Shown: positions 13,053 through 35,800 of the stretch, piece after piece
Numbering within the stretch: the stretch's first letter is position 1
Layout of the letters: every line of letters starts with the position of its first letter
NCBI GenBank assembly: GCA_020632295.1
Contig: JACKFU010000001.1
Coordinates: forward strand, 601,442-665,441
Direction: 5' to 3'
DNA: 64,000 nt
Source: Candidatus Peribacteria bacterium
GTDB taxonomy: Bacteria > Patescibacteriota > Gracilibacteria > Peribacterales > Peribacteraceae
The notes under the pieces: generated by a model
Told to the model about the DNA's origin: nothing
Database searches by the model: none
What the model saw: only the letters and a program-made list of their open reading frames with translations
Made by a program: the position numbers and the translations under genes

Positions 13053-13058
13053 TTATTA

Positions 13059-15081: not shown

Positions 15082-15104
15082 GTGGAAAGTGGAAAGCGGA
15101 AAGT
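15082..15104. repeat. GTGGAAA/GCGGAAA heptamer array that fills the whole HMGS-thiolase spacer
   Basis: gtggaaagtggaaagcggaaagt lies exactly between the stop at 15105 and the start at 15081. Confidence 0.9.
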
Positions 15105-16130: not shown

Positions 16131-16165
16131 GAGGGGCAGTGTAGCAGAAATTTGGCTTTAAAAAG

Positions 16166-17332: not shown

Positions 17333-18285
17333 TAGACTAAGTGTGCACCTTTTCCCACACTAGCTTCAAACACTTTACATCCTTTCTGCACATTTGCGTA
17401 TGCCCTTACTGTTTCCAGTGCCTCTGCTTCACAAATCACATGGACTGTTGGTCCGGCATCCATGGTATAGAGCAGGGGAAGATGCTGTGTTTTTCTTAGT
17501 GTCTTTAGTTCGTCGACGATGCGATACGTTTCATCACTTAAGTAGTGCAGCGGAGGATCTTGCGTTTGCATGCAATGATGCATATCCAAACAGTCTTCTT
17601 CGGTGACTGCCATCAATTTTTCAAAATCTTTATTGGCAATAGCATCAATGCATTCTTGCTGACGTCGCTCCGTGATGTCTGTAATACGTTTTTTATAGTG
17701 TGGGCTTGTCCATGCAGAGGCGTGTCCTTCTGTTGAGCCTACCTTCTTATGATCCGTATTTGGTGCAATAACAATATCAAACAACTCCCAGTGATCTTGT
17801 GGGGCAATTTGTCTTGCAATAGCCGAGTCTTCGGTATTTTCTAGTGCAACAAACCCTCCAACAATCGAGCGAGCTGCACTACCAGAACCCAGTCGTGCCA
17901 TTTGCGAAATTTGCTCATCGTTTAGTCCGCAATCTGCGAGTGCTGCAATGGCTTTTGCAAGTGCACTGAAGACTGCTGCAGAGGAAGCGAGTCCAATTCC
18001 CGGTGGAATCTGTGAGTCGATTTCTATCGAAATCGTATTTTGTACCTTTGGATGGTATTGCTTGATGAGATCAACGGTTTTTTGAAAACGTTCGATGTCT
18101 TTATCTTTCATCTCTTTATTATTTGATGAGACGGAAAATCGGTCGGATTCCGTTACCGTAATCTCAACGCAGGGTTCGCTGAGTGTCATGCTTAGTGAAT
18201 CTGCAGCGGGGAGACGAAGCTCATTGTTTCTGTTGCCCCAGTATTTAATAAGGGCGATGTTTGGCGTGGAGCAGGCGGTGATCAT
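17332..18285 (-). CDS. Diphosphomevalonate decarboxylase family (could instead be phosphomevalonate decarboxylase)
   Basis: PNIALIKYWGNRNNELRLPAADSLSMTL, GLASSAA GHMP motif. 1-nt TAATG overlap with the HMGR start. Confidence 0.85.
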   Translation of the reverse strand: MITACSTPNIALIKYWGNRNNELRLPAADSLSMTLSEPCVEITVTESDRFSVSSNNKEMKDKDIERFQKTVDLIKQYHPKVQNTISIEIDSQIPPGIGLASSAAVFSALAKAIAALADCGLNDEQISQMARLGSGSAARSIVGGFVALENTEDSAIARQIAPQDHWELFDIVIAPNTDHKKVGSTEGHASAWTSPHYKKRITDITERRQQECIDAIANKDFEKLMAVTEEDCLDMHHCMQTQDPPLHYLSDETYRIVDELKTLRKTQHLPLLYTMDAGPTVHVICEAEALETVRAYANVQKGCKVFEASVGKGAHLV

Positions 18286-19154
18286 GAGATAGAGAGTGTT
18301 AGAGTGTTAGAGTTTTGGGGAGTGAGGGTACTTAGTATCATGCCACATCCGCCAGTGCGTGCCCCTGCACCAATGACTTTTGCTGCGCCGCCTTCTTGTT
18401 CAATTTTTTTGATCAATTCTTTTGCCTCTTCTGTCACAATACCGAGAGAACACTGTGCTTGATGATGGTCACGGATTACTGTTGCAAGGTCTTCGCCACT
18501 CAGCAGTCGATCGGCGCATGATCCTATCGTCTTAAGGGCGTCTTGTAGCTCTTCTTTTCTCTCTGTTATCCACGCGATAAGTTCCGGTGTTTGTTCATGG
18601 GGTGTTCCGGTATCAATCAGGCACGCATCCTTCAGCAGATTTTCAGGCAGATGAATTGGTTCTGGTTCAGACCCTTTCGTAAACTTCATAGGTTGCTTGT
18701 TCCATATCACGGCAAAGTCCAGTCCGCTATGACCTGGGTTAAGTCTATCTTCAATGTGGAGGGCAGGTTCTTTGTAGTGATGATCAAGGAGTACCCCAGT
18801 AATTGCAATATTGAGTGCTGTTGAGCTTCCCATACCTTTACCAAGTGGCAAATGGTTTTCGATAGCGAGTGTGCCACCAGCTACTGACCGTGCTTCTCTA
18901 CAGTGTTTTATAATCTTTTGTGCGTATGTAATCCAGAGAGGATGCGCATCCCATTCAAGTGTAATTTCGTCTGTTGATGTATTTTCTGTGAACCGCGCAA
19001 TAAGCTCTTGGGAGGAGGGAATGGCAATACCCGTGTATCCAAATAACACGGCATATTCGCCGGAGAGGATAATCTTCCCACAGACGTGTGCAGTTCTATC
19101 CGCCAAATCGCCTTGTACGGGAAGAAAATGCATCGACAGATTCCTGCAGCTCAT
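18282..19154 (-). CDS. Mevalonate kinase (GHMP kinase)
   Basis: GKIILSGEYAVLFG and PLGKGMGSSTAL motifs. Alternative start at 19133. ATGA overlap with the downstream decarboxylase. Confidence 0.85.
   Translation of the reverse strand: MSCRNLSMHFLPVQGDLADRTAHVCGKIILSGEYAVLFGYTGIAIPSSQELIARFTENTSTDEITLEWDAHPLWITYAQKIIKHCREARSVAGGTLAIENHLPLGKGMGSSTALNIAITGVLLDHHYKEPALHIEDRLNPGHSGLDFAVIWNKQPMKFTKGSEPEPIHLPENLLKDACLIDTGTPHEQTPELIAWITERKEELQDALKTIGSCADRLLSGEDLATVIRDHHQAQCSLGIVTEEAKELIKKIEQEGGAAKVIGAGARTGGCGMILSTLTPQNSNTLTLSIS
18291..18316. repeat. CTAACACT-family octamer array (read on minus strand) forming the mvk C-terminus, just upstream of the decarboxylase ATG
   Basis: Plus strand agagagtgttagagtgttagagtttt. 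Encodes NSNTLTLSIS. Confidence 0.85.
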
Positions 19155-19764
19155 TTACGCCAAAGTCTGGGAAGAGCATGTCGATAAAATCCCACTCCGC
19201 ATACGCTGCCTGGAAGAGGAAGAAGTTGCTTGTTCGATGTTCACCGGAGGTGCGAATAATCAGATCGATATCGGGAAGCTCAGGGTGGTCGAGATACGGC
19301 GAGATGAAATCTTCAGACTCAGCTTTTAGATGATAGCTTTTAGCTTTTAGAGCAGCCCTTAAGATTTCATCTTTGCCACCGTAGTCCACAGCGAGGTGTA
19401 GAGTAAATCCGTCATAGTCTTTTGTTTCTTCTTCTACTTCCTCAATCAGTTTTGCCAGTGAAGTGGGGATGCGGTCACGCCTTCCAGAATGAATAAATTT
19501 TGTGTTCTTATTGTTAAATCCTTCCCGTTCTTTGGCCAAATACTCCTCAAGCATCTTCATGAGCATTGAGACCTCTTTCTTATCGCGTTTCCAGTTTTCC
19601 GTGGAGAAGCACCAGACGGTGAGTGCATCTACTCTCGGGTCGTTTCTGCACCAGTCGGTTAAGCTCCGAAAATGTTCAATAGCTTCCTTGTGCCCATCCC
19701 ATGGATGGAGACTTCGTTTCTTCGCCCAGCGTCGATTGCCGTCAGGGATGATGGCTACATGCAT
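19096..19764 (-). CDS. uppS: Isoprenyl transferase (undecaprenyl-diphosphate synthase family)
   Basis: HVAIIPDGNRRWAKK and IRTSGEHRTSNFFLFQAAYAEW motifs. Confidence 0.9.
   Translation of the reverse strand: MHVAIIPDGNRRWAKKRSLHPWDGHKEAIEHFRSLTDWCRNDPRVDALTVWCFSTENWKRDKKEVSMLMKMLEEYLAKEREGFNNKNTKFIHSGRRDRIPTSLAKLIEEVEEETKDYDGFTLHLAVDYGGKDEILRAALKAKSYHLKAESEDFISPYLDHPELPDIDLIIRTSGEHRTSNFFLFQAAYAEWDFIDMLFPDFGVNELQESVDAFSSRTRRFGG
19321..19348. repeat. AGCTTTT heptamer array inside the uppS CDS
   Basis: agcttttagatgatagcttttagctttt, encoding KAKSYHLKAES. Confidence 0.8.
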
Positions 19765-20267
19765 AGTGCTAGAGCTTGGTGGAACCAGGGGGCATATTGA
19801 TTTGGATGTTTAGTCATATCTAATTTGAGCGTATCAATTGCAATCCATTTCAGCTCAGCTACTTCGCTTGGGGCGGGGCAAAGTTCTACAGATTCATCGG
19901 CTTCGCCGATCAATATCGTATCGTATTCATACTCTGTACCAGCTCCACTTGGGTCATCTGCTTTATATACGAATGTGTCAACAACAGAAAGAGGGCAGGT
20001 AAATCCACATTCTTCCTGGAGTCTTGCTGCCGCCTCTTCTTCGATTGGTTTTTTCTCTTGCGGGTGACTGCAGCAGGTATTTGCCCAGTAGCCCCCAAAG
20101 AGCTTCTTCTCTGGTGCACGTTTTTGGATGAGGAGCTTTGTTCTATCTGTCGAGAAGATAAAGATAGAGAAGGCTTTGTGGAGTTTGCCCCCATGTGTAT
20201 GTGCGTCCATGATGTCGCAGGTTCCGAGGGTTGTCCCTTTTGGGTCGGTGAGAATGACGGATTTCAT
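19755..20267 (-). CDS. idi: Isopentenyl-diphosphate delta-isomerase, type 1 (Nudix)
   Basis: HKAFSIFIF, WANTCCSHP, EEAAARLQEECG motifs. Confidence 0.85.
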   Translation of the reverse strand: MKSVILTDPKGTTLGTCDIMDAHTHGGKLHKAFSIFIFSTDRTKLLIQKRAPEKKLFGGYWANTCCSHPQEKKPIEEEAAARLQEECGFTCPLSVVDTFVYKADDPSGAGTEYEYDTILIGEADESVELCPAPSEVAELKWIAIDTLKLDMTKHPNQYAPWFHQALALCM

Positions 20268-20309
20268 ACAGAGAGTGTAACAGGGAAATTTGGGAATGAT
20301 AGAAAATTA

Positions 20310-20318
20310 TGCTATAAT
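20310..20318 (+). promoter_or_regulatory. Extended -10 box TGcTATAAT, 7 nt upstream of ATG 20326
   Basis: Direct reading. Implies a leaderless mscS-family transcript. Confidence 0.5.
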
Positions 20319-20325
20319 AGACCTA

Positions 20326-21375
20326 ATGGAGCAAATACAGACCATTCTAAATTTAACCATAGGAGGGAATACTGTCGGCGAATGGGCTGTTGCCGCTTCG
20401 GTCTTTCTTGGCATCTTTATCGCGCTGCAAATGGTGCGAAAGTTTATTATCAGCAGACTGCATACCCTTGCAAAAAAGTCGACTATCAAAATTGATGATG
20501 TGATTGCAGGGTTCTTCAACAGCATGAAGACGCCAATCTTCTTTCTTATTGCATTGTTTGTTGCTGTACGAGGCGTAGAAGTGCCTCAATCTATTCAGTT
20601 AATCTTGAATATTGCTCTTGTTGTTGTCATTGTCGCGCAAGCGGTGCGACTACTTGAAGAGGTGACAGTCATGCTTGTCGAGAAACAGTTTCACAAGAAG
20701 AATTCCCAAGCACCGCTGCCAGGGATTTTTCGTATTGCTATTCGTATTCTCCTTTGGTCTGTCGGCTTTCTCCTTATTCTCAGTAACATCGGTGTCGATA
20801 TTACGTCACTCGTTGCGGGTCTAGGTATTGGAGGTCTTGCCGTCTCACTTGCGCTTCAGAGCATTCTGACGGATATGTTTTCTAGCTTCTCGATCGCGGT
20901 GGATCGCCCATTTGAGGTAGGAGACTTTATTATAGTTGGAGAGCACAAGGGAACAGTAAAACACATTGGTCTCAAGACAACACGTATCGAAGCACTTGAA
21001 GGTGAGGAAATTGTTATCTCCAATACAGAGCTAACGACTGCACGAGTGAGAAACTACAAGAAAATGCATAAACGTCGTATTCAATTTAGTATTGGTGTCA
21101 CGTATGACACGACACCGGAGAAATTGCGTTTGGTGAATGATATTGTAAAGCAGTCCATAGAAGGCATGGAGCATGTTGAATTTGATCGTTCGCACTTTAA
21201 AACATTTGGTGATAGTGCGCTGCTCTTTGAAGTGGTGTACTTCATGCTTATCAGTGACTACGCTGTCTACATGAATGCTCAGCAGGAAATGAATTTAAAG
21301 ATTCATGAAGCATTTACAAAAGAGGGTATAGAAATGGCGTTTCCTACACAGACCATAGTTGTGAAGAAGCAATGA
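20326..21375 (+). CDS. MscS-family mechanosensitive channel
   Basis: FEVGDFIIVGEHKGTVKHIGLKTTRIEALEGEEIVISN beta-domain motif after TM helices. Track start 20290 is TTG and lies inside the promoter. Confidence 0.85.
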   Translation: MEQIQTILNLTIGGNTVGEWAVAASVFLGIFIALQMVRKFIISRLHTLAKKSTIKIDDVIAGFFNSMKTPIFFLIALFVAVRGVEVPQSIQLILNIALVVVIVAQAVRLLEEVTVMLVEKQFHKKNSQAPLPGIFRIAIRILLWSVGFLLILSNIGVDITSLVAGLGIGGLAVSLALQSILTDMFSSFSIAVDRPFEVGDFIIVGEHKGTVKHIGLKTTRIEALEGEEIVISNTELTTARVRNYKKMHKRRIQFSIGVTYDTTPEKLRLVNDIVKQSIEGMEHVEFDRSHFKTFGDSALLFEVVYFMLISDYAVYMNAQQEMNLKIHEAFTKEGIEMAFPTQTIVVKKQ

Positions 21376-21393
21376 GCGCGCTACCATGAGTGC

Positions 21394-21882
21394 ATGCGCA
21401 GAGGATTTACTCTCATCGAACTCATTGTTGTTATCGCTATTATTACCATAATAGCGGCAACAGTTTTCGTTGCGGTTGACCCTGCAAAGCAGCTTCATAA
21501 AGCGCGAAACTCTTCGCGCTGGTCTGATGCCACGTCACTCCTAGAAGGCATAAAGAAGTACCAGTTTGATAACGATGGAATTCTTCCGCCAATTGATAAT
21601 GATGAGCGTACAGTGCAGCTTATTGGCTCAAGTGTTTCTGGCTGCGGTGGTACGTGTGCAGGCTACACCGTAGCAGGTAGCAGTTGTGGGGTGGACCTTG
21701 CTACTGCGTTACGTCCGTATATGAAAGATCTACCGTTCGATCCGCGTAGTGGTTCCCTGACAAATACCCGGTATTACATCAATAAAGATGAGTTTAGCCT
21801 GGTATCTATTGGAGCATGTGATCCAGAAGGGGAGGGCGCAGGAGGCCAGGGAGAGGTTCCAGAGATTGAATTAACACGCTAA
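21394..21882 (+). CDS. Type IV pilin (prepilin-type N-terminal cleavage/methylation domain)
   Basis: MRRG|FTLIELIVVIAIITIIA class III signal. Confidence 0.85.
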   Translation: MRRGFTLIELIVVIAIITIIAATVFVAVDPAKQLHKARNSSRWSDATSLLEGIKKYQFDNDGILPPIDNDERTVQLIGSSVSGCGGTCAGYTVAGSSCGVDLATALRPYMKDLPFDPRSGSLTNTRYYINKDEFSLVSIGACDPEGEGAGGQGEVPEIELTR

Positions 21883-21901
21883 TTAGCCAATAAAGCTACT
21901 A

Positions 21902-21930
21902 TTTACGGCAATCGTGTTTTTTGATATACT
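21902..21930 (+). promoter_or_regulatory. Promoter: TTTACG, 17 nt, TGaTATACT, 6 nt before the pilB ATG
   Basis: Direct reading of tttacggcaatcgtgttttttgatatact atcaag ATG. Confidence 0.5.
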
Positions 21931-21936
21931 ATCAAG

Positions 21937-23631
21937 ATGACTTCAAAAACACCAACACCAACCCTCGATAACGATCTTCTGAGCCTTCTTGTCGAGAGTG
22001 GCGTCATGACCGAAGAAGGTCTGCGCACACTCACAAGTCGTAGTAAGGGTGAGCAGAGTATTTTTGAGCGGCTTCTTCTGAATGAGGGGTACCTCATTGA
22101 TAATCAGTTAGGTCAACTTAAAGCACAGGTGCATGGCTGGCATTTCGTCGATTTGGAAACAATGGACATTGCTGAGCAGGAACTGAGCGCTCTACCGACA
22201 GTAATGCGCGAAGCGCAGGGAGTTGTTCCGTATCGTTATAACAGTGAGCTGCGTATTGCGATGAAGAATCCCGCTGATACGAAGCTTGTGCGCCTTCTTC
22301 GTAAGAAGTTTGGTGCATCGGTATCTATCGCTTATGCAACGGATGCTGATATTTCTGAGGCACTTGCTTCCAATAATGCAGAGTACGCAGAGCATTGTGA
22401 ACTCGTTCTCAAGCGACACTTGGAGGCCAGCAAGCAGCAGAAGACTGATGATAATTCTATCATCGAACTGGTAGATTCATTGCTACTTCATGGTGTTCGT
22501 TCCCGCGCTTCTGATATTCACATAGAGCCACGTCGTGAGGAATCTATTGTGCGTGAGCGTGTTGATGGGGTGCTTGGTACTACGCTTCGATTTGCTCCAT
22601 CTGTACACGATCTCGTTTGTCTTCGCATTAAGGTTCTTGCAAACCTTGCAACAGATGAGCATAGCAAGCCGCAAGATGGCAAACTGCAATACATTACTCC
22701 TGGCGGCAAGCGTGTGGATGTCCGTGTATCTATTTCGCCGATTACGAGTGGCGAAAAAATTGTGATGCGACTTCTTGCCCCAGAAGACCAAGCGCTTTCT
22801 ATGGAGGCAATTGGGTTGCAGCCTGAGGATCTTCATCGTCTTCAGAAGGAGATGGGTCGGTCATGGGGTATGGTTCTTGTCACTGGGCCAACAGGTTCTG
22901 GCAAAACAACTACACTCTATTCTGGCGTACGAAAGTTGAATCAAGACTCAGTGAACATTGCGACTATCGAAGATCCTGTAGAATATGATTTGCCTGGTGT
23001 AAACCAAATTCAGGTAAATGAGAAGGCAGGTATTACGTTTGCCAATGGTCTTCGATCTATTGTCCGTCAGGACCCAAACATTATTCTGGTCGGAGAAATT
23101 CGCGATAGCGAAACAGCGGGCATCGGTGTGAATGCAGCAATGACTGGTCACCTTGTGCTTTCTACACTGCACACAAACGATGCTGCAACGGCACTCCCTC
23201 GTCTTATTGATATGGGCATTGAGCCGTTCCTAATTTCGTCTACGGTCAATGTTATCATCGCACAGCGACTTGTACGCAATACGTGCTCTCGTTGTCGGGA
23301 GAGTAGGGAAGTGTCTGTATCGGAACTGAAAGAGTCTGTTCCTGCAGACCTTCTGAAGAAGTTGGCAAATGGGAAGAAGAAGATTCGTCTCTACGAGGGA
23401 AAGGGATGCAGTGTCTGTGATGGATCTGGCTACCATGGCCGAAGCGGTATTTTTGAACTGCTGATAGTCGATAAGTCTATTCAGGATCTTATTATGAAAA
23501 ATGCAGATGCCGATACGATTAAGCAGGCTGCTGTAAAAAACGGTATGAGAACGATGATAGAAGATGGTATCAGTAAGGTGCTACAAGGAGTAACAACGCT
23601 TGAAGAAGTACTCCGTGTTATTCGCTCATGA
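21937..23631 (+). CDS. pilB: Type IV pilus assembly ATPase (GspE/PilB family)
   Basis: VTGPTGSGKTTTLY Walker A, GEIRD, Cys tetrad CSRC...CSVC, N-terminal GSPII-like domain. Confidence 0.92.
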   Translation: MTSKTPTPTLDNDLLSLLVESGVMTEEGLRTLTSRSKGEQSIFERLLLNEGYLIDNQLGQLKAQVHGWHFVDLETMDIAEQELSALPTVMREAQGVVPYRYNSELRIAMKNPADTKLVRLLRKKFGASVSIAYATDADISEALASNNAEYAEHCELVLKRHLEASKQQKTDDNSIIELVDSLLLHGVRSRASDIHIEPRREESIVRERVDGVLGTTLRFAPSVHDLVCLRIKVLANLATDEHSKPQDGKLQYITPGGKRVDVRVSISPITSGEKIVMRLLAPEDQALSMEAIGLQPEDLHRLQKEMGRSWGMVLVTGPTGSGKTTTLYSGVRKLNQDSVNIATIEDPVEYDLPGVNQIQVNEKAGITFANGLRSIVRQDPNIILVGEIRDSETAGIGVNAAMTGHLVLSTLHTNDAATALPRLIDMGIEPFLISSTVNVIIAQRLVRNTCSRCRESREVSVSELKESVPADLLKKLANGKKKIRLYEGKGCSVCDGSGYHGRSGIFELLIVDKSIQDLIMKNADADTIKQAAVKNGMRTMIEDGISKVLQGVTTLEEVLRVIRS

Positions 23632-24683
23632 AACTGTTTTCCCGGCCAAAGCTCGGCGCAACAGATACGCAGCTCGTTCTTCGGAACTTGTCAGTATCAC
23701 TCAGCGCTGGCGTTCCACTTGCTCGTGCACTTCGGACCTTTGAAAGCGATTCTCCACGATCGAGAAAGCCCTTACTCACGCATCTACGACGTAGTATCGA
23801 ACAGGGGAAGTCTCTTGCTGATGCCATGGAATCTGCACCAAAGCGATTCCCAGCGATTGCTATTAACTTGGTGCGCACGGGTGAAACAAGCGGATCTCTT
23901 CCGAAAAGCCTCGATGCCGTTGCTGCGCACCTAAAGAAGATGATGGAGCTCAAGCGCAAGATTCGCAGTGCGATGATGTACCCAACATTTGTGCTCATTG
24001 CCGTCCTTGGTCTTGGGATCTCTATTGGCACTCTTGTTCTTCCCAAGCTCATTCCTCTCTTTGAAACACTTGATGTAGAACTGCCGTGGACAACGCGAGC
24101 GTTGCTTGCCACTGCGCATTTTCTCGACACCTATGGCTTACTGTTTGCTGGAAGCATCATTCTCTTGCTTATTGGTGTATTTCTGCTGACAAGAACAGAA
24201 TGGTTCAAGCCACACTGGCAACGATTTCTGCTTCATATTCCCTATATTGGAACTGTGCAGAAGCAGGCATCGGTTGCACAGATCGCTGCAAGCCTTGGCA
24301 CGCTCCTCGATAGTGGTATTCCTATTCATAGCGCCATTCCTTCTGCAGCTATGTCGACAGAGAACCGTGTCTTTCGTCAGGCACTGCTTGATACAATTCC
24401 TGTCATTGAATCTGGTCGCCCGTTTGCCGAAGGGCTGAAGCAGGCAGGCAGTACATTCCCACTGATGAGTAGAGCACTCGTGGAAGTAGGCGAGGAGACG
24501 GGGACGCTCACAGAAACACTGCAGTATCTTTCGGAGTATTTTGATGCAGAGGTGGATTACGCCGTGAAGAATTTAACGAATGCACTTGAGCCGATTCTTC
24601 TTATCTTTGTTGGTCTTCTTGTTGGTGGTGTGGTCATGGCGATCATCACACCGATCTACGATGTGACGAGTTCAATACGGTAA
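23628..24683 (+). CDS. pilC: Type IV pilus platform protein (GspF/PilC family)
   Basis: Two T2SSF-like repeats. EVGEETGTL motif. 3 TM. Confidence 0.88.
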   Translation: MKLFSRPKLGATDTQLVLRNLSVSLSAGVPLARALRTFESDSPRSRKPLLTHLRRSIEQGKSLADAMESAPKRFPAIAINLVRTGETSGSLPKSLDAVAAHLKKMMELKRKIRSAMMYPTFVLIAVLGLGISIGTLVLPKLIPLFETLDVELPWTTRALLATAHFLDTYGLLFAGSIILLLIGVFLLTRTEWFKPHWQRFLLHIPYIGTVQKQASVAQIAASLGTLLDSGIPIHSAIPSAAMSTENRVFRQALLDTIPVIESGRPFAEGLKQAGSTFPLMSRALVEVGEETGTLTETLQYLSEYFDAEVDYAVKNLTNALEPILLIFVGLLVGGVVMAIITPIYDVTSSIR

Positions 24684-24694
24684 CATTTTTCGCT

Positions 24695-25159
24695 ATGATG
24701 GAACGCAAGATGCGTTCCCGCCCTGCCTTCACCGCTATTGAACTGATTGTTGTTTTGGCAATTTTTGTTGTTGCCATAGCGATTACGTTGCCCTTTTTAG
24801 GGAAGTTTCAGCAGGAAGAAACACTGACGACGGTCACGCAAGATATCGTGCAAACGCTTCGAAGGGCGCAGAACAAATCGATGAATGGGGAGCGTGGAGT
24901 GGCGTGGGGTGTGGCTCTCCAAGAAGGGGCGTATATTCAGTTTGCTGGACCTTCTTATTCTTCTGGTCGCATTGTACGTCTCGATGAGAAGCACACACTC
25001 CAAAAAACATTTACGTTGTATGGGCCGCCAGAGATTCTCTTTGCGAAGCGTACAGGCTATGTCGGCACTGAGGCAGTGATTACTCTCCAGGGACCTGAGC
25101 GGGGCCTCTCGAACATTACCGTTAATGCTGAAGGTGGTATTTCCTATGAATCACTATGA
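24695..25159 (+). CDS. Pseudopilin / minor pilin
   Basis: RPAFTAIELIVVLAIFVVA prepilin-like N-terminus. Confidence 0.75.
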   Translation: MMERKMRSRPAFTAIELIVVLAIFVVAIAITLPFLGKFQQEETLTTVTQDIVQTLRRAQNKSMNGERGVAWGVALQEGAYIQFAGPSYSSGRIVRLDEKHTLQKTFTLYGPPEILFAKRTGYVGTEAVITLQGPERGLSNITVNAEGGISYESL

Positions 25160-28100
25160 GCATCCTGCAGCGTCGCCATGGGCAAATGCTTCTCGAGGTC
25201 GTGGTGGCCATGGGTATTCTTGTGCTGTTTGTCACGGCATTTATCAGCCTGATTCTCGGGGCGTACGATGGCGGCAGAAAAGCGCGTGAGCGAACAGAAG
25301 CGTCGTACATTGCTTGGGAAGGACTTGAGATGGTGCGCAGTATCGCTCGCGATCGGTTTGACGATATAGCTGAAGGGACATTCGGTGTTTTCGAGCTTGA
25401 TGGTGCTTTTGTCCTTTCTGGCGCCCTAACGATTCATGGGCAGTATGAACGTGAGATGATGCTGTCTCATCCCAAAGAGGACTCCTCAACGTGGATCGCA
25501 GAGTCGACCGTGTCGTGGGGCGGCAGATCACTCACGCTCACGTCTGCATTTACGGACTGGAGGCGCCCACGGTGGCGCTTTGATCTTCTCAATAAAGGAG
25601 ATGAAGGACTTGTGCATGCAACAGAGTCACTTGGTTCGGGTGGCATTGCCTTCCGTGGACAAGGGGATCTTTCGTTGCCGCATGTGTTTTACGAAGAAGG
25701 TCTCTTTGATGGGGTCACCGTTCGTGACCTTGAGGTGGATGCAAATGAAGACCGTCTCTATGTTCTCTCGCAGCTCAATGCACAGGGGCCAGAGTTTGCC
25801 GCGTTCGACCTTTCTAATATCTCTCAGCAAGATTTACCGTACATCGATGGCACGGAGCTGAATGCTGATGGTGTGAAGTTTGTTATGGGAGAGGAGTATG
25901 CGTATGTGCTTACTGCACATGGCGATCGGGATATCATCAAAATTCGCCTCTCCGATTTTGGTACAGCGGCTACCTGGGACATTCTCCGTGCAGCAAAGCC
26001 AATTGATATGGCAATTGATGAGACGCGTGGCAAAGCTTATGTTCTCACCAATCGATTAGAGCAAGGGAAGAGTGTCTCTGCTCTCCCACCGGAGATTGCA
26101 ACTACAGGCTTCTTTGTCGAAGAAGCGTATGCACAGGGGGTGCCAACGTGTAACGGCCAGACAGCAACTATCTACGTTGATGGCAGCAATAATATTGTCT
26201 CCACTGTCGCCAAGGATAACGGCGATCCATACACCGGGACACTAACGGGTAGTAACAGTGCAGACGTGATTGTTGGAACGTCGGGCAATGATATTATCAA
26301 TGCAAAGAATGGTGACGATATTATCTGTGGAGGTGACGGTAACGATACCATTGATGGTGGCAATAACAACGATACGATTTTTGGTGAGGGAGGAGCTGAT
26401 ATCATCACAACAGGCAATGGTGTGAATATCGTGTGTGGTGGCTCAGGAAACGATACGATTACTGGTGGTAACAGTACCGATAGTCTTGCCGGTGGCGATG
26501 GGACAGATACCCTCAACGGTAGTACCGGAACGGATATTTGCCGTGAAGGTGAAGTAAATACAGGGTGCGAAGATACGACGAGTGCTATTGCCACCTGTGG
26601 TGTTTCCGCCTCGGATACTACATCACCGACAATCAGTACACTGTCGCCTGCAGATGATGCAACAGATATCGATGTGACGACAAATCTCGTCATTACTTTT
26701 AACGAGAATGTGAATGTCGAAACGGGAAACATTACGATTTACAAGAGTGACAGCACACAGGTAGAGCAAATTGCTGTGACCTCGGGGCAGGTAACGGGGG
26801 ATGGGACGGCAACAATTACGATTAATCCGTCATCCGACCTTACGGCAGCAACGTCGTACTACGTGCAAATCGACGCAACGGCGTTCGATGACTTAGCTGG
26901 CAACTCCTACGCGGGAATCAGTAATACGACGAGTTGGACGTTTACAACAGCAGCTAGCTGCACGCCAGATCCGCTTCCAACCTGTAACGGGCTGACGGCA
27001 ACGGTGTACGTTGATAACTGTGGCAACATGGTGGGTGGTACTGATGATGGCAATGCATATTCCGGTACGATTAATGGTTCGCAGAGTATTGACGATGTCA
27101 TTGTCGGAACCAGTAGTGTAGATACCATCGATGGTAAGAGTGGCGATGATACAATTTGCGGTGGCAATGGAAACGACGATATTACAGCAGGGTCAGGTAA
27201 TGACACTGTCTTTGGAGAAGGTGGCAACGATACGATTACTGGCGAAGGTGGTGATGACATTATGTGTGGAGGAGAGGGGGATGATGACTTAACCGGAGCA
27301 GGTGGAAACGACCAACTGGATGGTGGACCTGGTACCGATACGATTGATGGAACAGGCCAAACTGATATCTGTCGTAACGGAGAAAGTTACACAAACTGTG
27401 ATGATTTCTCATCAGCGATTACTGCCTGTGGAGTCGCTGCCGATACAACTGCTCCAACCATTAGCACACTCTCTCCGGCAGACGATGCGACTGGCGTAGA
27501 CCCTGCATCGAATCTTGTGATTACCTTCAGTGAAGAGATATCTGTTGAAACCGGAAATATTTCTATTTACAGAACATCCAATGATTCACTCATTGAGGCG
27601 ATTGATGTGACGTCTGGACAAGTGACGGGGGATGGCACAACGAGCATTACCATCAACCCAACATCAGATCTGCTTACCGGTATTGAATACTATATTAAAA
27701 TTGATAGCACTGCATTCGACGACCTAGCTGCCAACAGCTTTGCCGGGATTAGTGATACGACTAGCTGGAGCTTTACGACCTCTGGCTCTCCGCCAGATGA
27801 GACGGCACCAACCGTGAGTTCCTACTCGCCGACGAGTGGTGCTACGGGTGTTTCCGTATCGACAAACCTCGTTCTGACGTTTAGTGAATCTGTCACTATT
27901 GTTTCAGGGAATGTTGCCATCTACGATTCGTCAGATACGCTTGTAGAAGCCATTTCTGTGACTTCAGGGCAGGTGACGGGCAGTGGGACGGATACGATTA
28001 CCATTAATCCAACATCTGATTTATCGCTCTCTACATCGTACTATGTTCTTATTGATGGCACTGCGTTCGATGATCTTGCAGGGAATAGTTACGTTGGTAT

Positions 28101-29484
28101 TGGCAGTACGTCTACATGGACGTTTACGACGACTACCACAAACGACACTACTCCTCCTTCCATCGGTTCACTCTCACCATCTGATGATAGTACCGGTGCT
28201 TCTTACAATACTGATCTAACGATTACGTTCGATGAGGAAGTGACCATTGTCAGTGGGAATATTACTATCTATCAATCTGATGGAACGGTGTACGAAACAA
28301 TTGATGTGACGTCTGCACAGGTCAGTGGCAGTGGCACAACTACTATCACCATTAACCCAGGTACAGACTTTGTTGCAGGTTCAGGGTACTACATTCAGAT
28401 TGATGCAACAGCATTCGATGACCTTGCCGGAAATTCCTTCGCAGGCATTACTAATGCGACAACGTGGAACTTTACAACGGGAGTTACGTCATCCTCATCT
28501 TCATCGTCCTCGAGCTCGTCGAGTGTTCCTTCTGGAAGAACAAAGTTGCCACCTCCAAGTCAAAAACTCTATGTCATTGATATTTCCGGTGAAAATAGTA
28601 GTGATATTGCTGATGCAACGGTGGTGAAAGAAGTAGATATTGGTGCTGCCAGACGCATAGAGATAGCCGGTGGATACGCCTACATTCTTACAGATAATGG
28701 TGGTGCAGAGCTCTCGATTATGAACTTGAGTTCGTACGAGGTGACCAAATGCGATCTTCTGGGAGACCAACTACCAAACGATCTCTTCATAGATGGAACG
28801 ACACTCTACATCTCCAGAAATAGCGGCGTCTTTGAGGAGTTTGTTGGTTATAAGATTAATCCGTCGGATCCCGATAGTTGCGAGTACATCAATGACCATC
28901 AGAATCTTGCAGTGGAGATGGGCAACGACGGGCGTGCCTTTACTGTTCTCTCAGATAGAGAACTTGCGTTTGTTCTTGCAGGATTCGGTCTCAGTGATTT
29001 TCATGTTATTGATCTCAAAAAAGAACAAACCCTACCTCTCTCTCCATTTTCCAATGAAGATGGTCTCTGCGACGTCGCTAGTACGGTTGGGTCCTATGTC
29101 TTTACCGGGTGCAGAGGCGATGGTGGTGTCACCGTGTTTGAAGGGGACACTAATGTATCCGACTACTTCCTCTGGGGAACGTATACCGCTCCACCGTTCT
29201 CGCTTGGAGAGTATGCTTCACAAATTCACAGCCTGAAATGGCAGGTGGAAGGAGACGGGGAAGTGTTGCTGCGTGTTCGTTCGGCAAACTCAGAAGAGGC
29301 ACTGCAGCAGGCGCAGTGGCATGGTCCCGATGGAAAGACGACATCCTTCTTTACTGATGCTTCTGGCCAAAGTCTTTCGCTTGATGAAAGCAGCGAAGGG
29401 ACATTTGTTCAGTGGAAGGCGTACTTTAAGAAAACCGGTAACGATACTCCGATACTTAAAAATGTTATTCTTTCGTTTGAATGA
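25156..29484 (+). CDS. Giant pilin-leader adhesin: minor-pilin-like N-terminus, propeller-like repeats, 2 RTX-like Ca-binding blocks, 4 Ig-like modules
   Basis: RRHG|QMLLEVVVAMGIL (Glu at +5). GGDGNDTIDGGNNNDTIFGEGGADII nonapeptide-like runs. Four copies of (T/P)PTISTLSPADDATG...ITFxE...GNITIY...VTSGQVTGDGT..ITINP...YY.QID..AFDDLAGNS. 12-Ser run. Confidence 0.85.
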   Translation: MSILQRRHGQMLLEVVVAMGILVLFVTAFISLILGAYDGGRKARERTEASYIAWEGLEMVRSIARDRFDDIAEGTFGVFELDGAFVLSGALTIHGQYEREMMLSHPKEDSSTWIAESTVSWGGRSLTLTSAFTDWRRPRWRFDLLNKGDEGLVHATESLGSGGIAFRGQGDLSLPHVFYEEGLFDGVTVRDLEVDANEDRLYVLSQLNAQGPEFAAFDLSNISQQDLPYIDGTELNADGVKFVMGEEYAYVLTAHGDRDIIKIRLSDFGTAATWDILRAAKPIDMAIDETRGKAYVLTNRLEQGKSVSALPPEIATTGFFVEEAYAQGVPTCNGQTATIYVDGSNNIVSTVAKDNGDPYTGTLTGSNSADVIVGTSGNDIINAKNGDDIICGGDGNDTIDGGNNNDTIFGEGGADIITTGNGVNIVCGGSGNDTITGGNSTDSLAGGDGTDTLNGSTGTDICREGEVNTGCEDTTSAIATCGVSASDTTSPTISTLSPADDATDIDVTTNLVITFNENVNVETGNITIYKSDSTQVEQIAVTSGQVTGDGTATITINPSSDLTAATSYYVQIDATAFDDLAGNSYAGISNTTSWTFTTAASCTPDPLPTCNGLTATVYVDNCGNMVGGTDDGNAYSGTINGSQSIDDVIVGTSSVDTIDGKSGDDTICGGNGNDDITAGSGNDTVFGEGGNDTITGEGGDDIMCGGEGDDDLTGAGGNDQLDGGPGTDTIDGTGQTDICRNGESYTNCDDFSSAITACGVAADTTAPTISTLSPADDATGVDPASNLVITFSEEISVETGNISIYRTSNDSLIEAIDVTSGQVTGDGTTSITINPTSDLLTGIEYYIKIDSTAFDDLAANSFAGISDTTSWSFTTSGSPPDETAPTVSSYSPTSGATGVSVSTNLVLTFSESVTIVSGNVAIYDSSDTLVEAISVTSGQVTGSGTDTITINPTSDLSLSTSYYVLIDGTAFDDLAGNSYVGIGSTSTWTFTTTTTNDTTPPSIGSLSPSDDSTGASYNTDLTITFDEEVTIVSGNITIYQSDGTVYETIDVTSAQVSGSGTTTITINPGTDFVAGSGYYIQIDATAFDDLAGNSFAGITNATTWNFTTGVTSSSSSSSSSSSSVPSGRTKLPPPSQKLYVIDISGENSSDIADATVVKEVDIGAARRIEIAGGYAYILTDNGGAELSIMNLSSYEVTKCDLLGDQLPNDLFIDGTTLYISRNSGVFEEFVGYKINPSDPDSCEYINDHQNLAVEMGNDGRAFTVLSDRELAFVLAGFGLSDFHVIDLKKEQTLPLSPFSNEDGLCDVASTVGSYVFTGCRGDGGVTVFEGDTNVSDYFLWGTYTAPPFSLGEYASQIHSLKWQVEGDGEVLLRVRSANSEEALQQAQWHGPDGKTTSFFTDASGQSLSLDESSEGTFVQWKAYFKKTGNDTPILKNVILSFE

Positions 29485-29951
29485 GAACCCTTACTTCAAG
29501 ATACGGCTTTACCCTCTTAGAGCTGATTGTGTACGTGGGCATTACAGCACTCGTGGTTGTCTCGCTGACAAATGTCATGATTACAGTGTTTGAGACACGG
29601 GAGCGGACAGAGGGCGTCAGTGAAGTGCAGCAGACTGGTCGGTTTCTCTTCGATCGTATTCGTGCATCTGCTCTTGCTGCCGCCACATTTGAAGGAACGA
29701 CATCAGATCGTCTTGTTCTTAACATGCCAGAAGGCGTTTTGGGCCCCATTGTTTTTTCAGTGAGTGAGGGTGTTGTCTATACAAGAACTGGGGAGAAGCC
29801 AGCGGAAGCACTTACGTCATCACTGGTGACAGTCGACGCACTCATTTTTACTGTTGTTCATGATACTGTCTTACAAATTGATCTGACTATTTCTGATGCA
29901 AAAGAGGATTCGATGACGTTGCATACATCCCATTCTCTCCGCTTACTATGA
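29481..29951 (+). CDS. Pseudopilin / minor pilin
   Basis: SRYG|FTLLELIVYVGITALVV. Confidence 0.8.
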   Translation: MRTLTSRYGFTLLELIVYVGITALVVVSLTNVMITVFETRERTEGVSEVQQTGRFLFDRIRASALAAATFEGTTSDRLVLNMPEGVLGPIVFSVSEGVVYTRTGEKPAEALTSSLVTVDALIFTVVHDTVLQIDLTISDAKEDSMTLHTSHSLRLL

Positions 29952-30337
29952 TGAAAACGTCCAATAGACCCGGCGCAATGCTCCTCATTACCGTCATGAT
30001 TATGGGTGCAGTTGCACTACTCATTGGTATGAGTTTGGCACTTCGGGGTATTGGGGAAATGGAGATGAGTTTTAGTTCGTCTCAGGCACTCAAAACGCAG
30101 GCCGTGCTCGATGGATGTATGGAGGAAGTGCTTATGCAAGTATGGGGTGATAGTTCCTATCGAGGAGGAACAATTTCCCTTGGAGAAGGGGAGTGCGTTG
30201 TGACGATTATCCCCGAAGATGACATCAAGATCGTTTCCATTCATGCGCATATCGGTAAGTGGGAACAGACGCTACAGGCGCGCGTTGATTCTGAATCAAT
30301 TGGCATGCAACTTCTTGAGTGGCGACAGGGGCAGTAA
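29948..30337 (+). CDS. PilX-like minor pilin (no Glu+5)
   Basis: NRPGAMLLITVMIMGAVALLIG hydrophobic N-terminus. Position in the pilin block. Confidence 0.55.
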   Translation: MMKTSNRPGAMLLITVMIMGAVALLIGMSLALRGIGEMEMSFSSSQALKTQAVLDGCMEEVLMQVWGDSSYRGGTISLGEGECVVTIIPEDDIKIVSIHAHIGKWEQTLQARVDSESIGMQLLEWRQGQ

Positions 30338-30362
30338 ATACTGTATACTCGATGCACCTTCC

Positions 30363-31355
30363 ATGTTTGCTCTTCAGTGTAGTCCGTCGGTCATTCGTGC
30401 TGCTGCTGCAAAGCGCAGTGGCAGTAACCTTGCAGTGCATGCGCGTGCTGAGAAGAAAATTTCAGGCGACATCTTTCAGGCAGGAGGCATTGCGGATACA
30501 GAAAAAGCACTCGAGGCGCTTCAGGAGCTTATGAAGATGCTCAAGATAAAGCGTGGTGCAGTGACACTTTGTGTCTCACCGAGAATGCTTTATACGACGC
30601 TTATTCGTGTTCCCAAAACTCGTCGACAACTCGCTGCCGCTGTTCGCGGAGAGCTGGAGGCAGTGTTGCCGGTGCCCATTGAGACGATGGATGTTCACTT
30701 TACGCAAGTTCGTCATGATGAGCAGGGATTGCGCATTGCCATCACTGCAGTTTCGAAGGATGCATTTGGTACATATCAATCGCTTTTAAAAGATGCAGGG
30801 CTTACCCTCAAGGGTGTGACGACAACAGGTCTTGCACTTGGTAATATGGTGAAAGAGGATTCATTTTTGCTGATTAATGCAGAAGACCCTGAACCGAGTA
30901 TCGTTGTTTTTTATGGTGGGAAACCTGTTGATGAGCATTTGCTTTCCTCGGTAGCAGTCAAGAATGTTCTTTCAGATACAAAAGCACTCCTCGATGAGTA
31001 TGCAGCAGATGGCATGCCCATTCAGCATATCGCTGTGCATGGCACTAAAGAACTGAGCGAGAAGGTTGAGGATGCCTTTACCCCGAAGAAGAGTCCGAAA
31101 GACAAACGAGAGGAAATTGAGCAGGCAACTACTGTGGAACGTCTCCTCCCAAATTTAGCAAAAAGTGATCTTGAATGGGGAGGTGTTATTATTTCTAGCC
31201 TTGGAAGGGGAATTGATATTCGCAAAGGATTTTCCAGAGGTACAATGCTGCAATATGTTCTTATGCTCACGTTTTTTACAGCAGCAGCCTACTTTTTTTG
31301 GATAGTGGGCTCACAGCAGATTCTTGGGATCTGGAGTGATTTGACTAGTCTTTAG
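30363..31355 (+). CDS. PilM-like pilus assembly protein with C-terminal TM (PilN-like) segment
   Basis: ATG at 30363. Actin-like fold pattern is weak. C-terminal [23 protein letters not shown]. Operon context. Confidence 0.5.
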
Positions 31356-31372
31356 TGCTAGGATCTCTTTCC

Positions 31373-32245
31373 ATGGAGAATAGAAACACCTTAGGCGAGC
31401 AGTTTGCCACTATGTTCAAAGGTGGTGTCATTATGGACGTGGTTACCCCAGAGCAAGCTCGTATAGCAGAGCAAGCTGGTGCGTGTGCTGTAATGGCTCT
31501 GGAACGCGTCCCGTCAGATATTCGAAAAGAGGGTGGTGTTGCGCGCATGAGTGACCCAAAGCTTATTAAAGAGATTAAAGCTGCAGTGTCTATTCCTGTC
31601 ATGGCTAAGGTGCGCATTGGTCATACCGCAGAGGCACGTATTCTTCAGGCACTGGAAGTCGACTATATCGACGAAAGTGAGGTGCTGACTCCTGCAGATC
31701 CATTTAGTCATATTGATAAGTCACAGTTCACGATTCCGTTTGTCTGTGGAGCAACGAACCTTGGCGAAGCACTCAGGCGTATTCAGGAAGGTGCTGCGAT
31801 GATTCGTACCAAAGGAGAGGCCGGAACAGGGAATGTCATTGAGGCTGTCCGTCATCTTAAGGAGATTACGCAGCAGATTGTGGATCTTACGACGGTGTCT
31901 CTCTCAGAGAGATCCCTCTTTGCAGAGCGTGAACGTGTAGCACTAGATCTTGTCGATCGCATTGTAGAGCTGAAGCGACTCCCAGTCGTCACCTTTGTTG
32001 CCGGAGGTATAGCAACTCCTGCAGATGCAGCATTGGTGATGGAACTTGGCGCAGAAGGTGTGTTTGTTGGTTCGGGTATCTTCAAGTCCGAGAATCCCGC
32101 TCAGCGTGCAGAAGCTATCGTGAAAGCAACGACGTACTGGCAAGACTCTGCAGTTCTTGCGGAGGTTTCTGAGGGGTTGGGGGAAGCAATGAGTGGAATT
32201 GAGATCGATCAACTTGAAGAGACACTTGCCGAAAGAGGATGGTAA
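31373..32245 (+). CDS. pdxS: Pyridoxal 5'-phosphate synthase lyase subunit
   Basis: [38 protein letters not shown]... near-canonical PdxS. Confidence 0.95.
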
Positions 32246-32862: not shown

Positions 32863-35800
32863 ATGAATGCAGCACGTCGATTGTTTATTTCCGTTGCGGT
32901 CGGGTCATCGTTTCTTATGCCCACTTCATCTTTTGCTCAAATATCTGTTGGTAGTATCGATTCATTCTTTGATATCTATCAGGATATTTCTCTACCAAAG
33001 GCGCCTGCTACACAATTTGATCATCCAGATTGTATAACTTGTGATGACATTGTGGACGCTATTATGGATACACAAGCAACATTGCAGCATCTCGGGGCAG
33101 AGGCAGATAAACTGCTTGCTCAGCATACAGTGTATCAGGGATTGATTCAGACGATGCAAGCAAGTCTTGCTTTGCTCGAGGCAGACCTCACTCGTATTCA
33201 GAGTGAAGATTTTGTTCGTGATGAAACCACCGGTGAAACTGAAACAGCGCGAAATCAGGCTGCTCGCAAAGCGTATAGAAATGATACCTATCAGCAATGG
33301 AAGGCTGGAGACATTAGTAGTGAAGAGAAGATGCAGCGCGATAGTCACAGCTACGAAATGACAGAGTCAGAGCTTGCAAAGTGGTATAAGAATGCCAAGG
33401 CCGATACAGAGAGTGAAATCAAGACGATGAAAGAACAAATCGAGTCTATGCAGGGGACTATTGATGATATTCTTGATGATCTTGAAGATGTTCTTGATGA
33501 CATAGAGGCAGGCGACGCAACGCTCTCTCAGCTCTTAGATGCCCTCGAGGACTGTTGGAAGATGTGCATTGATGGGCCAGTGTCCCTCAATGACTTAGAG
33601 ATTATGCCAGAGCCACTTCCGCCACTGCACGATGGCCCGTTTGGCAAAATACAGGATTGGATATTTGGCATACCAGACATTGCGTTAGTACCACCTTCAG
33701 ATCCATTCAATGTTGATTCATTCTTCGATATCTTTGTGGATATTCCACTACCGGAAGCTACCTGTCCCTTCTGCGACCCTTTGCGCAACCAAATTGCTGC
33801 AATGCAAAAAGATGCTACTGCATTGCAAACACGCCTTACTGCTATGAAAGCAGATCTTACGCAGGCTAATAGAGGTCTTGCACAAGCGGAGCGAGAGCTT
33901 GCAACAGCACAGCAAGCGTGGGATCGCATGAATTCCGATGACTTTGTAACAAACCATTCTACTGGAGTTACGGAGACCGCTCGCGATCAGGCGGCACGCA
34001 GAGAGTTCCGTAGAAATTCACACGATTACTCTCAAACGGGTTCAGACCTTACAGAGGCAGAACTTAATCGTTGGGCACAGAAGGCAGAAGCACGTCTTCA
34101 AGCGGAGCTTGCTGCTGCTAAGAAAATGGTCAATGCAGCACGAACCAAAACGAAGGGAATTCAGGATGCAATGCAGAATATTGCAGATCAACTGGCAGCA
34201 TCTCAGAAAGCATTGAGTGCACGTATGGAGTCACTTGCTCAATGCGAAGCATCGTGTAAAAACATGGATGAGCTTAATCGCACCCTCGAGGATGTATCTG
34301 TCCTCACTCCACCAACGTCATTTGAGCCAAGTGGTTACTTCTGCAGTATTCCAGTTATCCGTAGCGTGACCTGCGGCGAAGATGACAATGAGGGCTGGAT
34401 GTGCAATACATTTAATTTGTTCTGTCCAGAAGAGGAATTTTTCATTGATGATGCACTTGCCTGTATTACCGGTGCTTCATCCTCACTGTGTGATAGCATA
34501 GGAACAGAACCCCAGTTCTTTATTGAAGGTGCACTCGGCACGGAGTTTCCGCTGATTATTAGTGGTATGGACGGTGATATCAATGCGCTTCAGCATTGTC
34601 TTTCCAATGGCCCAGAAGATTGTACTGGTCTTGATTTCGGTCTCCCTGGAGAAGATATTCTCTTTGGAAACGATTTTCTTAATGCAGATCCTGGTGACTT
34701 TCACCTTGGTGTTCATGGGCCAAATGATGATGGTTTTTTACTCGGCGATCCCATTGATTCTGATCTTATCAATGTAGGAGGCGGTAGCAATGACATTCTC
34801 TTTGGTGGGCCAGTAGCCCTCTCTGATGACCTTATTGGCCCGGGCGATGACAGTATTCTTGGTGGCCCTCCGAGCGTCGATATTCTTGGTGACCCACCAC
34901 CACAGTCTGAACCAAGTGTGGCAAATGATCCTCGTGCACGTCAGGTTGCGCAAGCAGCTGTAGATGCATACTTACAGAGGAATCCTCTGCAACCTTGCGA
35001 GAAGCTGGTCGTGTCAGTCTCGCGTGTTCGTATCGGAAAACGGGTTCGGTATACGGTCAAAATTACCCGTGATCGAGATGAGGCACTCTGTCCTAAACAG
35101 TGCACGAAAGATGGTGGCTTTGAAAACATGGCAGCTTGCCAATCTGCTTGTCCAGATCCTTCACGTTGTGGATACGATGGTGGTACCTGTTGGCTCTGCA
35201 ACAGAGGAGACGAGAGCTCCTGCCAAAAGGATAATGGTTTTAACAGTATGGAAGCATGTCGTGCAGGTTGTAACAACCCAGAGTCCTGTGGTTATGATGG
35301 TAGTCTGTGTTACGTTTGTGGTCTGTATGATGATGACGATAGGGATCTTTGTAAGGATGTTGAGTGTGATGATGGCGATGAATGTACAGAGGATGCATGC
35401 AATCCAGATACAGGGGAGTGTACTAATACTCCTATTGATGGATGTGGTGATCCAGAGTGTGGAAATGGTGTAGTAGAAGCTGGAGAGGAGTGTGAATCGA
35501 ACGTTGATTGCAAGTTTGATCAACAGTGCAATCCAGAGTCATGCGCATGTGAGCGTATGGAGATTATTTCCAATGCTAAGTGTCCAGACCTTTCCTACGC
35601 TACGCAAAATGAATGCAGACAGGCATGTAGTGGCTCTTGTCAGTACAAACAGTATGAAGATATTTGGTGCTTCTTCTGCTACTCAGAAGATTTGTGGGGT
35701 GGCTCATCAAGTTCCAAGCGGTCGGTTGATGAACAATGTGACAGTCCAATGAAGAAGAAAGCAGATTGTGAGCGTAGTTGTGATGGCAAGTGTCACAAGT

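Follow-up and report, generated by a model that had tools for sequence, protein, structure and literature searches.

A probable modular type IV minor pilin with an RTX/immunoglobulin array nested in its predicted propeller in a Candidatus Peribacteria bacterium

We analyzed a stretch of 64,000 nucleotides (nt) from an ultrasmall Candidatus Peribacteria bacterium (assembly GCA_020632295.1, contig JACKFU010000001.1, positions 601,442 to 665,441 of the forward strand), called the window in the following, with coordinates counted from its first letter. The window contains a compact type IV pilus operon encoding a major pilin, PilB, PilC, four minor pilins and a PilM-like protein (Table 1). One of the minor-pilin genes, at 25156-29484 (+), is open for 1442 codons (4,329 nt, stop included), and its predicted product has 1442 amino acids (aa) and a mass of 150 kDa. 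It lies between an H-like and a J-like minor-pilin gene, followed by a K-like pilin without Glu at position +5. ATGA start/stop overlaps join it to the minor-pilin genes on both sides, and the gene is hence translationally coupled to both neighbors. A prepilin peptidase (PF01478, G000:C1:280271-280570) and four PilB/PilT-type (T2SSE) ATPases are encoded in the same genome of 1.18 Mb in two contigs. Its probable product is, in our view, a type IV minor pilin of modular build, a member of the tip priming complex, with a propeller and a nested array of RTX and immunoglobulin (Ig) domains binding a ligand, most likely for attachment to a host cell.

Table 1. Features of the pilus operon and of the 1442-aa protein in the window, with chemotaxis-type genes of two relatives in the last row. 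A slash marks the predicted cleavage site in leader motifs; residue numbers refer to the 1442-aa protein; HMM, hidden Markov model.
Feature	Position	Strand	Basis
Major pilin, 162 aa, G/FTLIE	21394..21882	+	Pfam N_methyl E 1e-7; GspG and IV_pilin_GFxxxE matches
PilB-type assembly ATPase, 564 aa	21937..23631	+	Pfam T2SSE E 2e-124, MshEN
PilC/GspF platform protein, 351 aa	23628..24683	+	Pfam T2SSF E 1e-50, two stretches
Minor pilin, GspH/ComGD-like, 154 aa, A/FTAIE	24695..25159	+	N_methyl E 2e-4; weak ComGE, GspH, ComGD matches
Probable modular minor pilin, 1442 aa	25156..29484	+	Translation; identical on Logan contig L029
Class III leader MSILQRRHG, residues 1-9, predicted cleavage after Gly9	25156..25182	+	Sequence, alignment
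Putative pilin module, GspI/PilV class, residues 10-138, alpha1 helix to 66, then six-strand beta-sheet	25183..25569	+	AlphaFold2, HMM matches
Short beta/helix segment between pilin and propeller, residues 139-175	25570..25680	+	Short strands 153-183 precede propeller in ortholog model
Predicted propeller, N-terminal part, residues 176-296: closing strand, blades 1-2, first two strands of blade 3	25681..26043	+	Aligns to P0002 193-314
840-residue insertion, residues 297-1136, in hairpin between second and third strands of blade 3	26044..28563	+	BLAST to insert-less ortholog
Module 1: Cys-containing cap, RTX 365-454 (nt 26248-26517), Big_5 487-598 (nt 26614-26949)	26143..26976	+	Pfam, motif positions
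Module 2, duplicate of module 1: RTX 641-731 (nt 27076-27348), Big_5 763-875 (nt 27442-27780)	26977..27807	+	
Big_5 Ig domain 3, residues 881-992	27796..28131	+	Pfam
Big_5 Ig domain 4, residues 997-1108	28144..28479	+	Pfam
Ser linker, exactly 12 Ser, residues 1112-1123, mixed codons	28489..28524	+	
Predicted propeller, C-terminal part, residues 1137-1330: last two strands of blade 3, blades 4-7	28564..29145	+	Aligns to P0002 323-512
C-terminal beta domain, residues 1331-1442, motif W-x-G-P-D-G	29146..29481	+	Conservation
Minor pilin, GspJ/PilW-position, 156 aa, G/FTLLE	29481..29951	+	N_methyl E 3e-4; weak GspI, GspJ, HpsC matches
Minor pilin, GspK/PilX-position, 129 aa, G/AMLLI, no Glu at +5, candidate capping subunit	29948..30337	+	Sequence
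PilM-like protein with C-terminal membrane segment, 330 aa	30363..31355	+	TIGR01175 pilM E 7e-16, PilM_2; L029 gene call
Chemotaxis-type gene sets of two relatives	L015 (G021:C17) 10000-16000; L017 (JGI contig) 1-3900		

From residues 1-138 we conclude on a putative minor pilin module of the GspI/PilV class. This conclusion draws on motif conservation, predicted fold, gene context and the occurrence of bare versions, whereas a curated family match is not among its grounds. The class III motif reads MSILQRRHG/QMLLEVVVAMGILVLFVTAFISLIL, with Gly at -1 and Glu at +5, and the sequence after the leader, QMLLEVVVAMGIL, begins with QMLLE. Gly9 and Glu14 are invariant in an alignment of 30 homologous N-termini. 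In the larger collection of family proteins, G-x4-E followed by a hydrophobic stretch was present in 134 of 161; the others are mostly N-terminally truncated calls or carry Ala or Ser at -1. At +1, Gln was found in 59 of the collected proteins, as in the 1442-aa protein, and Phe in 36. AlphaFold2 modeled residues 1-140 with a predicted local distance difference test (pLDDT) score of 93.9 as a 59-residue helix (8-66) and six strands within 74-133, a predicted arrangement that fits the lollipop architecture of pilins. When scored with curated class models (TIGR02523, TIGR01707, NF041013), the 140-aa module reached 21.8 bits for PilV (cut-off 52.2), 19.5 for ComGE (cut-off 49) and 16.6 for GspI (cut-off 44.35). 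Similarly, NCBIfam matches among 30 such modules pointed to PilV (17), ComGE (17), XpsI (11) and GspI (5), all sub-cut-off, and a sequence-profile search of the PDB returned no significant match for the module. N-terminal methylation-site models matched 8 of 47 relatives (Pfam) and 7 of 30 (TIGR02532). The module profile found exactly two copies in the genome, one in each of its pilus clusters. Across the phylum, it is present in 116 of 151 sampled genomes, either as a bare pilin of 140-240 aa or fused to larger C-terminal parts.

The residues that follow the pilin module, the insertion apart, would form a seven-bladed LVIVD-type propeller and a C-terminal beta domain, as modeled on the ortholog P0002. 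This 622-aa protein from genome G016 lacks the repeats and occupies the same operon position, at a locus adjoined by a prepilin peptidase gene; a further ortholog of 997 aa is found in genome G021. The AlphaFold2 model of P0002 (47 homologs in the alignment; pLDDT 91, predicted template modeling score 0.80) comprises a helix (5-63), a beta-sheet extending to residue 148, short strands (153-183), a propeller (193-512) and a C-terminal beta domain (520-621). We read the 28 strands at 193-512 as seven four-stranded blades. With the whole P0002 model, Foldseek retrieved seven-bladed propellers, YncE with an E of 9e-13 and also WD40 proteins; dominated by propellers, this search was uninformative for the pilin and C-terminal domains. 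On the 1442-aa protein, LVIVD (PF08309) scored E 0.018 and 14.8 bits versus a cut-off of 20.2, and it passes in 31 of 47 relatives and in a paralog from the same genome. Strands of the YVL(S/T) type are RLYVLSQ, YAYVLTA and KAYVLTN.

The C-terminal domain has invariant R, W, G and Q residues in a 20-sequence alignment; searches yielded no significant PDB sequence match and no Pfam match for it. None of 40 family proteins of 400-560 aa contains this domain, and most of the longer ones do. The segment of residues 139-175 and the W-x-G-P-D-G domain may together be one beta-sandwich that is split by the propeller. The architecture may then be doubly nested, with the sandwich enclosing the propeller and the propeller enclosing the RTX/Ig array.

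Pairwise BLASTP placed the RTX/Big_5 array inside the propeller. Residues 4-296 aligned to P0002 1-314 (32% identity, E 5e-47) and residues 1137-1441 to P0002 323-621 (30% identity, E 4e-36), and P0002 holds 8 residues at the site where the 1442-aa protein holds 840. We relied on pairwise alignment here because, in global MAFFT alignments, orthologs without the insert had their C-terminal half spread across the repeats. As P0002 without repeats aligns to both flanks, the array is an insertion between adjacent strands of blade 3. In P0002 the site lies between strands 311-316 (RAYVGR) and 324-328 (FYVLN), which by the repeat register would be the second and third strands of that blade. According to the WD40 convention, B-C hairpins lie on the propeller face that is usually used for ligand binding, and by analogy the insertion might thus emerge on this face.

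The inserted array has six strict GGxGxD motifs and about nine nonapeptides per RTX block. Pfam HemolysinCabind (PF00353) matched it in six stretches with an E of 2.3e-31, and Big_5 (PF13205) in four stretches with an E of 1.1e-66, above the gathering score. Module 2 is 61% identical to module 1 at the protein level. Judged by its RTX motifs alone, the array may depend on calcium. A search for a donor of the RTX/Big_5 module led to more than 5,000 unrelated large surface proteins with a single close match, P0015, and the genome contains no further copy of the module.

P0015 (1878 aa, from a JGI metagenome contig) is 61% identical over the first 330 residues and has the same operon order. Insertion site and linker sequence are shared as well, and the inserted part contains two RTX blocks and eight Big_5 domains. 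A third protein, on the ENA scaffold L019 (54% identical), features the same nested design and insertion site with five Big_5 domains. Ig modules hence number four in the 1442-aa protein, five in L019 and eight in P0015. Among 47 aligned relatives, Big_5 together with RTX occurs only in the 1442-aa protein and P0015. A representative search with the first 330 residues yielded 998 sequence clusters with length classes near 480, 620 and 950 aa and a few members of up to ~2,000 aa. Head domains differ widely among the relatives, with one or two propellers and other inserts. The nearest named homolog of the 1442-aa protein comes from 'Candidatus Peregrinibacteria'.

The first-pass annotation, drawn up from the letters of the window, had described a 1442-aa reading frame with a G/x4-E prepilin signature, a pseudopilin-like first domain, YVL(S/T) strands, two RTX-like blocks, four Ig modules and a 12-Ser run, with further propeller strands and a beta-rich domain toward the C-terminus. 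All of this is borne out: the frame translates without stops, the signature reads MSILQRRHG/QMLLE, the first domain measures about 135 aa, the three cited strands are present, and the remaining parts lie at the residues listed in Table 1. The proposed nesting of the repeats between two propeller halves agrees with the alignment to the 622-aa insert-less ortholog. As ways to check its reading, it had named structure prediction, alignment of the peptidase site and comparison with pilin-fused relatives. The N-terminus is predicted to be pilin-like, its Gly and Glu do not vary in the aligned sequences, and the nested design recurs in P0015 and L019. The claim that the protein is covalently a pilin gains support from the conserved class III motif, the predicted lollipop fold, the I-slot in the operon and the prepilin peptidase in the genome.

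Pilins with grafted domains are well documented. Raynaud et al. 2021 (PMC8179133) cataloged more than 1,200 modular pilins in 264 architectures, for example PilB (pilin plus vWA) and PilC (pilin plus lectin) of Streptococcus sanguinis. The same survey lists a prepilin (IPR012902) plus LVIVD (IPR013211) architecture in bacteria belonging to the Candidate Phyla Radiation (CPR), and a Falkowbacteria pilin with 12 LVIVD motifs. In common with these modular pilins, the 1442-aa protein has a small, putative N-terminal pilin module with grafted domains and a gene located among minor pilins; with the pilin plus LVIVD proteins it also shares, by prediction, the LVIVD-type propeller cargo, and a CPR host. 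Unlike them, it carries the 840-residue RTX/Big_5 array inside a propeller blade and then a C-terminal beta domain. Its 1442 aa are far above the 860-aa extreme of the survey. The propeller-bearing pilin is probably a pilus-tip binding head of the kind already cataloged. The design of a pilin with an LVIVD propeller is already known, and what is unusual is only the nested 'stalk inside head' topology together with the series of four, five and eight Ig modules.

A similar case is PilX2 of Nanosynbacter lyticus TM7x (Saccharibacteria), a propeller-bearing minor pilin that TM7x requires to bind its host normally, although filaments are extruded without it (PMC11623550; published version PMC12206443). 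PilX2 and, by prediction, the 1442-aa protein are CPR type IV minor pilins that end in a seven-bladed propeller; each is the largest pilin encoded at its locus, and both are candidate tip adhesins for episymbiosis. Compared by description, the repeats of PilX2 are of the RCC1 type and it lacks a predicted PilD signal peptide (PMC11623550), whereas the 1442-aa protein has a predicted LVIVD-type propeller, the canonical G/E5 motif, RTX/Ig insertions and the C-terminal beta domain.

With PilY1/PilC, the protein shares a predicted seven-bladed propeller tied to a minor-pilin tip complex and, by its RTX motifs, putative calcium-binding elements, and its role may be analogous. In contrast, PilY1 is no pilin and docks non-covalently, and it binds calcium at an EF-hand-like loop of its propeller rather than by RTX repeats. 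We rejected membership in the PilY1/PilC family, as the 1442-aa protein has a pilin-type N-terminus and no match at E<=0.1 to PF05567 (IPR008707), the C-terminal propeller of PilY1. The first-pass annotation had called the protein functionally analogous to PilY1/PilC; as a description of its design this is fair in view of the propeller, but it does not extend to the family. With GspI, PilV and ComGE, the common features are the sub-threshold HMM matches, the best, though nonsignificant, pilin fold match to EpsI and the second slot in a series resembling H-I-J-K. These proteins, however, are bare and have 100-140 aa, and the similarity of the 1442-aa protein to them stays below every curated cut-off.

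Nested domains are likewise found in the split-Ig giant RTX adhesins of the AhLap, FrhA and MpIBP type, repeat adhesins that depend on calcium. These have a binding head inserted in a stalk Ig domain; the 1442-aa protein appears inverted, with an RTX/Ig array of stalk type inside the head, and it also differs in having no type I secretion signal or genes. An RTX toxin or type I-secreted adhesin was rejected in view of the missing C-terminal signal and the pilus-gene neighbors. Both RTX blocks sit in the interior of the protein (residues 365-731 of 1442), and Ig domains and a propeller half come after them.

How might the protein work? Its N-terminal helix would insert it in the membrane, and prepilin peptidase would cleave after Gly9. 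Together with its H-, J- and K-like neighbors, it would then form a priming complex that ends up at the pilus tip. Glu5 is also missing in GspK and PilX. The 129-aa pilin, to which no HMM matched, is a candidate for the GspK/PilX class by gene position and its missing Glu5, and it would cap the complex. As Glu+5 is kept in the 1442-aa protein and missing in this neighbor, the former is more likely a member of a four-pilin tip complex, in the GspI/PilV position, than the very last subunit. Of the possible tip position put forward in the first-pass annotation, membership in the tip complex is thus favored, and the outermost place appears less likely. The propeller head and the looped-out, calcium-stiffened RTX/Ig array would contact the ligand. 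A host-cell surface is the most likely site for this ligand, because such bacteria presumably spend their lives fixed to other microbes. How large the loop is, or how far it reaches, would depend on the number of Ig modules (4, 5 or 8). One chain would hence do the work of PilV plus PilY1, which are two proteins in Gram-negative type IVa pili.

Several observations weigh against this proposal. Pfam PF07963 (N_methyl) and TIGR02532 gave no match to the 1442-aa protein at E<=0.1 or E<=1, and its PilV match (E 2e-4 to 4e-3) lies far under the curated cut-off. A Foldseek search of the PDB with the N-terminal model found no significant match, none being below E 0.09; the best pilin fold, Vibrio EpsI (GspI; 2ret_C), appeared with a nonsignificant E of 0.21 and a TM-score of 0.57 on the target. 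Propeller and blade assignment stem from the model of an ortholog that is 30-32% identical. A row of rigid domains held at both of its ends by a single hairpin also poses a geometric problem. The same-genus reference genomes (G001-G007) have no ortholog of the gene, only cluster-2-type pilin genes with 25-29% identity, and the protein is thus not essential to the lineage; within the genus, the pilus cluster of the window looks like an accessory locus or one that evolves fast. On one independently assembled contig, discussed below, deletions split the gene into four reading frames. Finally, cleavage, adhesion, calcium dependence and pilus incorporation are inferred.

Size (150 kDa), the 840-aa insertion and the lack of an N_methyl HMM match would also be in line with a membrane-anchored surface protein that is never polymerized. 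Its N-terminus would then be a signal-anchor or a subunit of the base or of a short pseudopilus, with the array exposed on the cell surface, and the dispensability of the TM7x propeller pilin PilX2 for filament extrusion (PMC11623550) points in this direction as well. We nevertheless consider it unlikely that the protein stays unpolymerized. Glu5 of type IV pilins matters for subunit packing in filaments, and Gly at -1 and Glu at +5 have been kept over hundreds of diverged relatives. Moreover, the same module also exists as a bare pilin, and the slot among the minor pilins is fixed and translationally coupled. Incorporation is known for larger modular pilins (PMC8179133).

Alternatively, the main role of the protein might lie in assembly. 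As the subunit in the GspI/PilV position, it would nucleate the priming complex, with propeller and insertion as accessory parts, such as envelope-spanning spacers or PilY1-like anti-retraction plugs. Nucleation by GspI-GspJ and priming by PilY1 are established for the type II secretion system and type IVa pili (Treuner-Lange 2020, as cited in PMC11623550), and the single copy per pilus cluster and the I-class HMM matches would suit such a function. Many genomes, however, encode the bare pilin, which argues that the added domains are dispensable for a core role, and the widely varying head domains are better suited to ligand recognition than to a conserved assembly task. An assembly function as main role hence seems improbable to us, yet it is compatible with a tip-complex pilin that binds a ligand.

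The contig that splits the gene, L018 (Logan assembly of SRR14493007), is colinear with the window over 5,793 nt with no mismatches and three frame-breaking deletions. Two of them, at 26796 and 27627, homologous positions, shorten G5 to G4, both in the same ACGGGGGATGG context of the duplicated modules, and the third shortens the sole (CT)4 to (CT)3 at 29036. The shared context of both G-runs suggests a systematic sequencing error, although the deletions may also represent an alternatively frameshifted subpopulation. The Logan assembly of SRR14234114 (L029), in turn, is identical to the window over 17,695 nt (13937-31631) with the whole gene intact. Tandem Repeats Finder reported nothing in the gene because the internal repeats are too diverged (57-70% identical as protein, ~66% as DNA), and at this divergence they are also too different to collapse or mis-join. 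That the long frame is an assembly chimera, as the first-pass annotation had considered, or a pseudogene repaired by polishing is therefore very improbable, and we rejected the chimera in view of the identical gene in an independent assembly, the diverged repeats and two diverged lineages that keep the nested architecture open.

A bolder idea for the nested array, to which we give little credence, is that of an inverted 'split domain'. The RTX/Ig array would be a calcium-stiffened loop, fastened by its two ends to one propeller hairpin. On the ligand-binding side of a propeller at the pilus tip, it would act as a tentacle of variable length (4, 5 or 8 Ig modules) and so determine reach or host range. 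Taken furthest, this idea has the two halves of the propeller either closing in cis or pairing in trans with those of another molecule. If this were true, the array would be a calcium-gated clasp linking pili or cells.

The genome has a second type IV pilus cluster (G000:C1:262000-278000, L016; genes at L016 5372-12970 (-)) with its own PilB, PilC and major pilin and a 479-aa paralog of the 1442-aa gene. This paralog has an LVIVD propeller (Pfam E 7e-10) and the leader G/FLLVD, with Asp for Glu at +5. The H-position minor pilin of the second cluster (355 aa) contains a His/Asp-rich stretch, DDHDSGDSDDDDDHGHDDDDDHGHGGHGHHDHHDDDDD, which is possibly metal-binding. In G001-G007, the H-like pilin module sits in ORFs (open reading frames) of 817-1020 aa. 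For the PilM-like gene of the window, the longest ORF would run 119 nt into the preceding pilin gene (30219-30362); the start at 30363 (330 aa), called on the identical Logan contig, is more plausible. In two relatives, CheA, CheW, CheB, CheY-like, CheX and MCP-like genes flank the orthologous pilus operon, a hint that the pilus of Peribacteria may be under sensory control of the Pil-Chp kind. Further downstream, just 3' of pdxS/pdxT, the window encodes a secreted and very Cys-rich protein of 1142 aa (32863-36291) with a Dicty_CTDC repeat match (E 5e-8).

For CPR bacteria, or Patescibacteria, a life in attachment to other microbes is presumed, and of their possible attachment organs type IV pili have the best support. 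The 1442-aa protein does not represent a new class of system; its value is that of a well-delimited and comparatively documented case for structural and binding studies. Three related lineages that differ only in the number of Ig modules provide a natural series for the function of the array. CPR bacteria in general appear to mount a binding module on the pilus by means of an I-slot minor pilin with grafted heads, and the 1442-aa protein shows the load limit of this scaffold stretched to 150 kDa and domains within domains.

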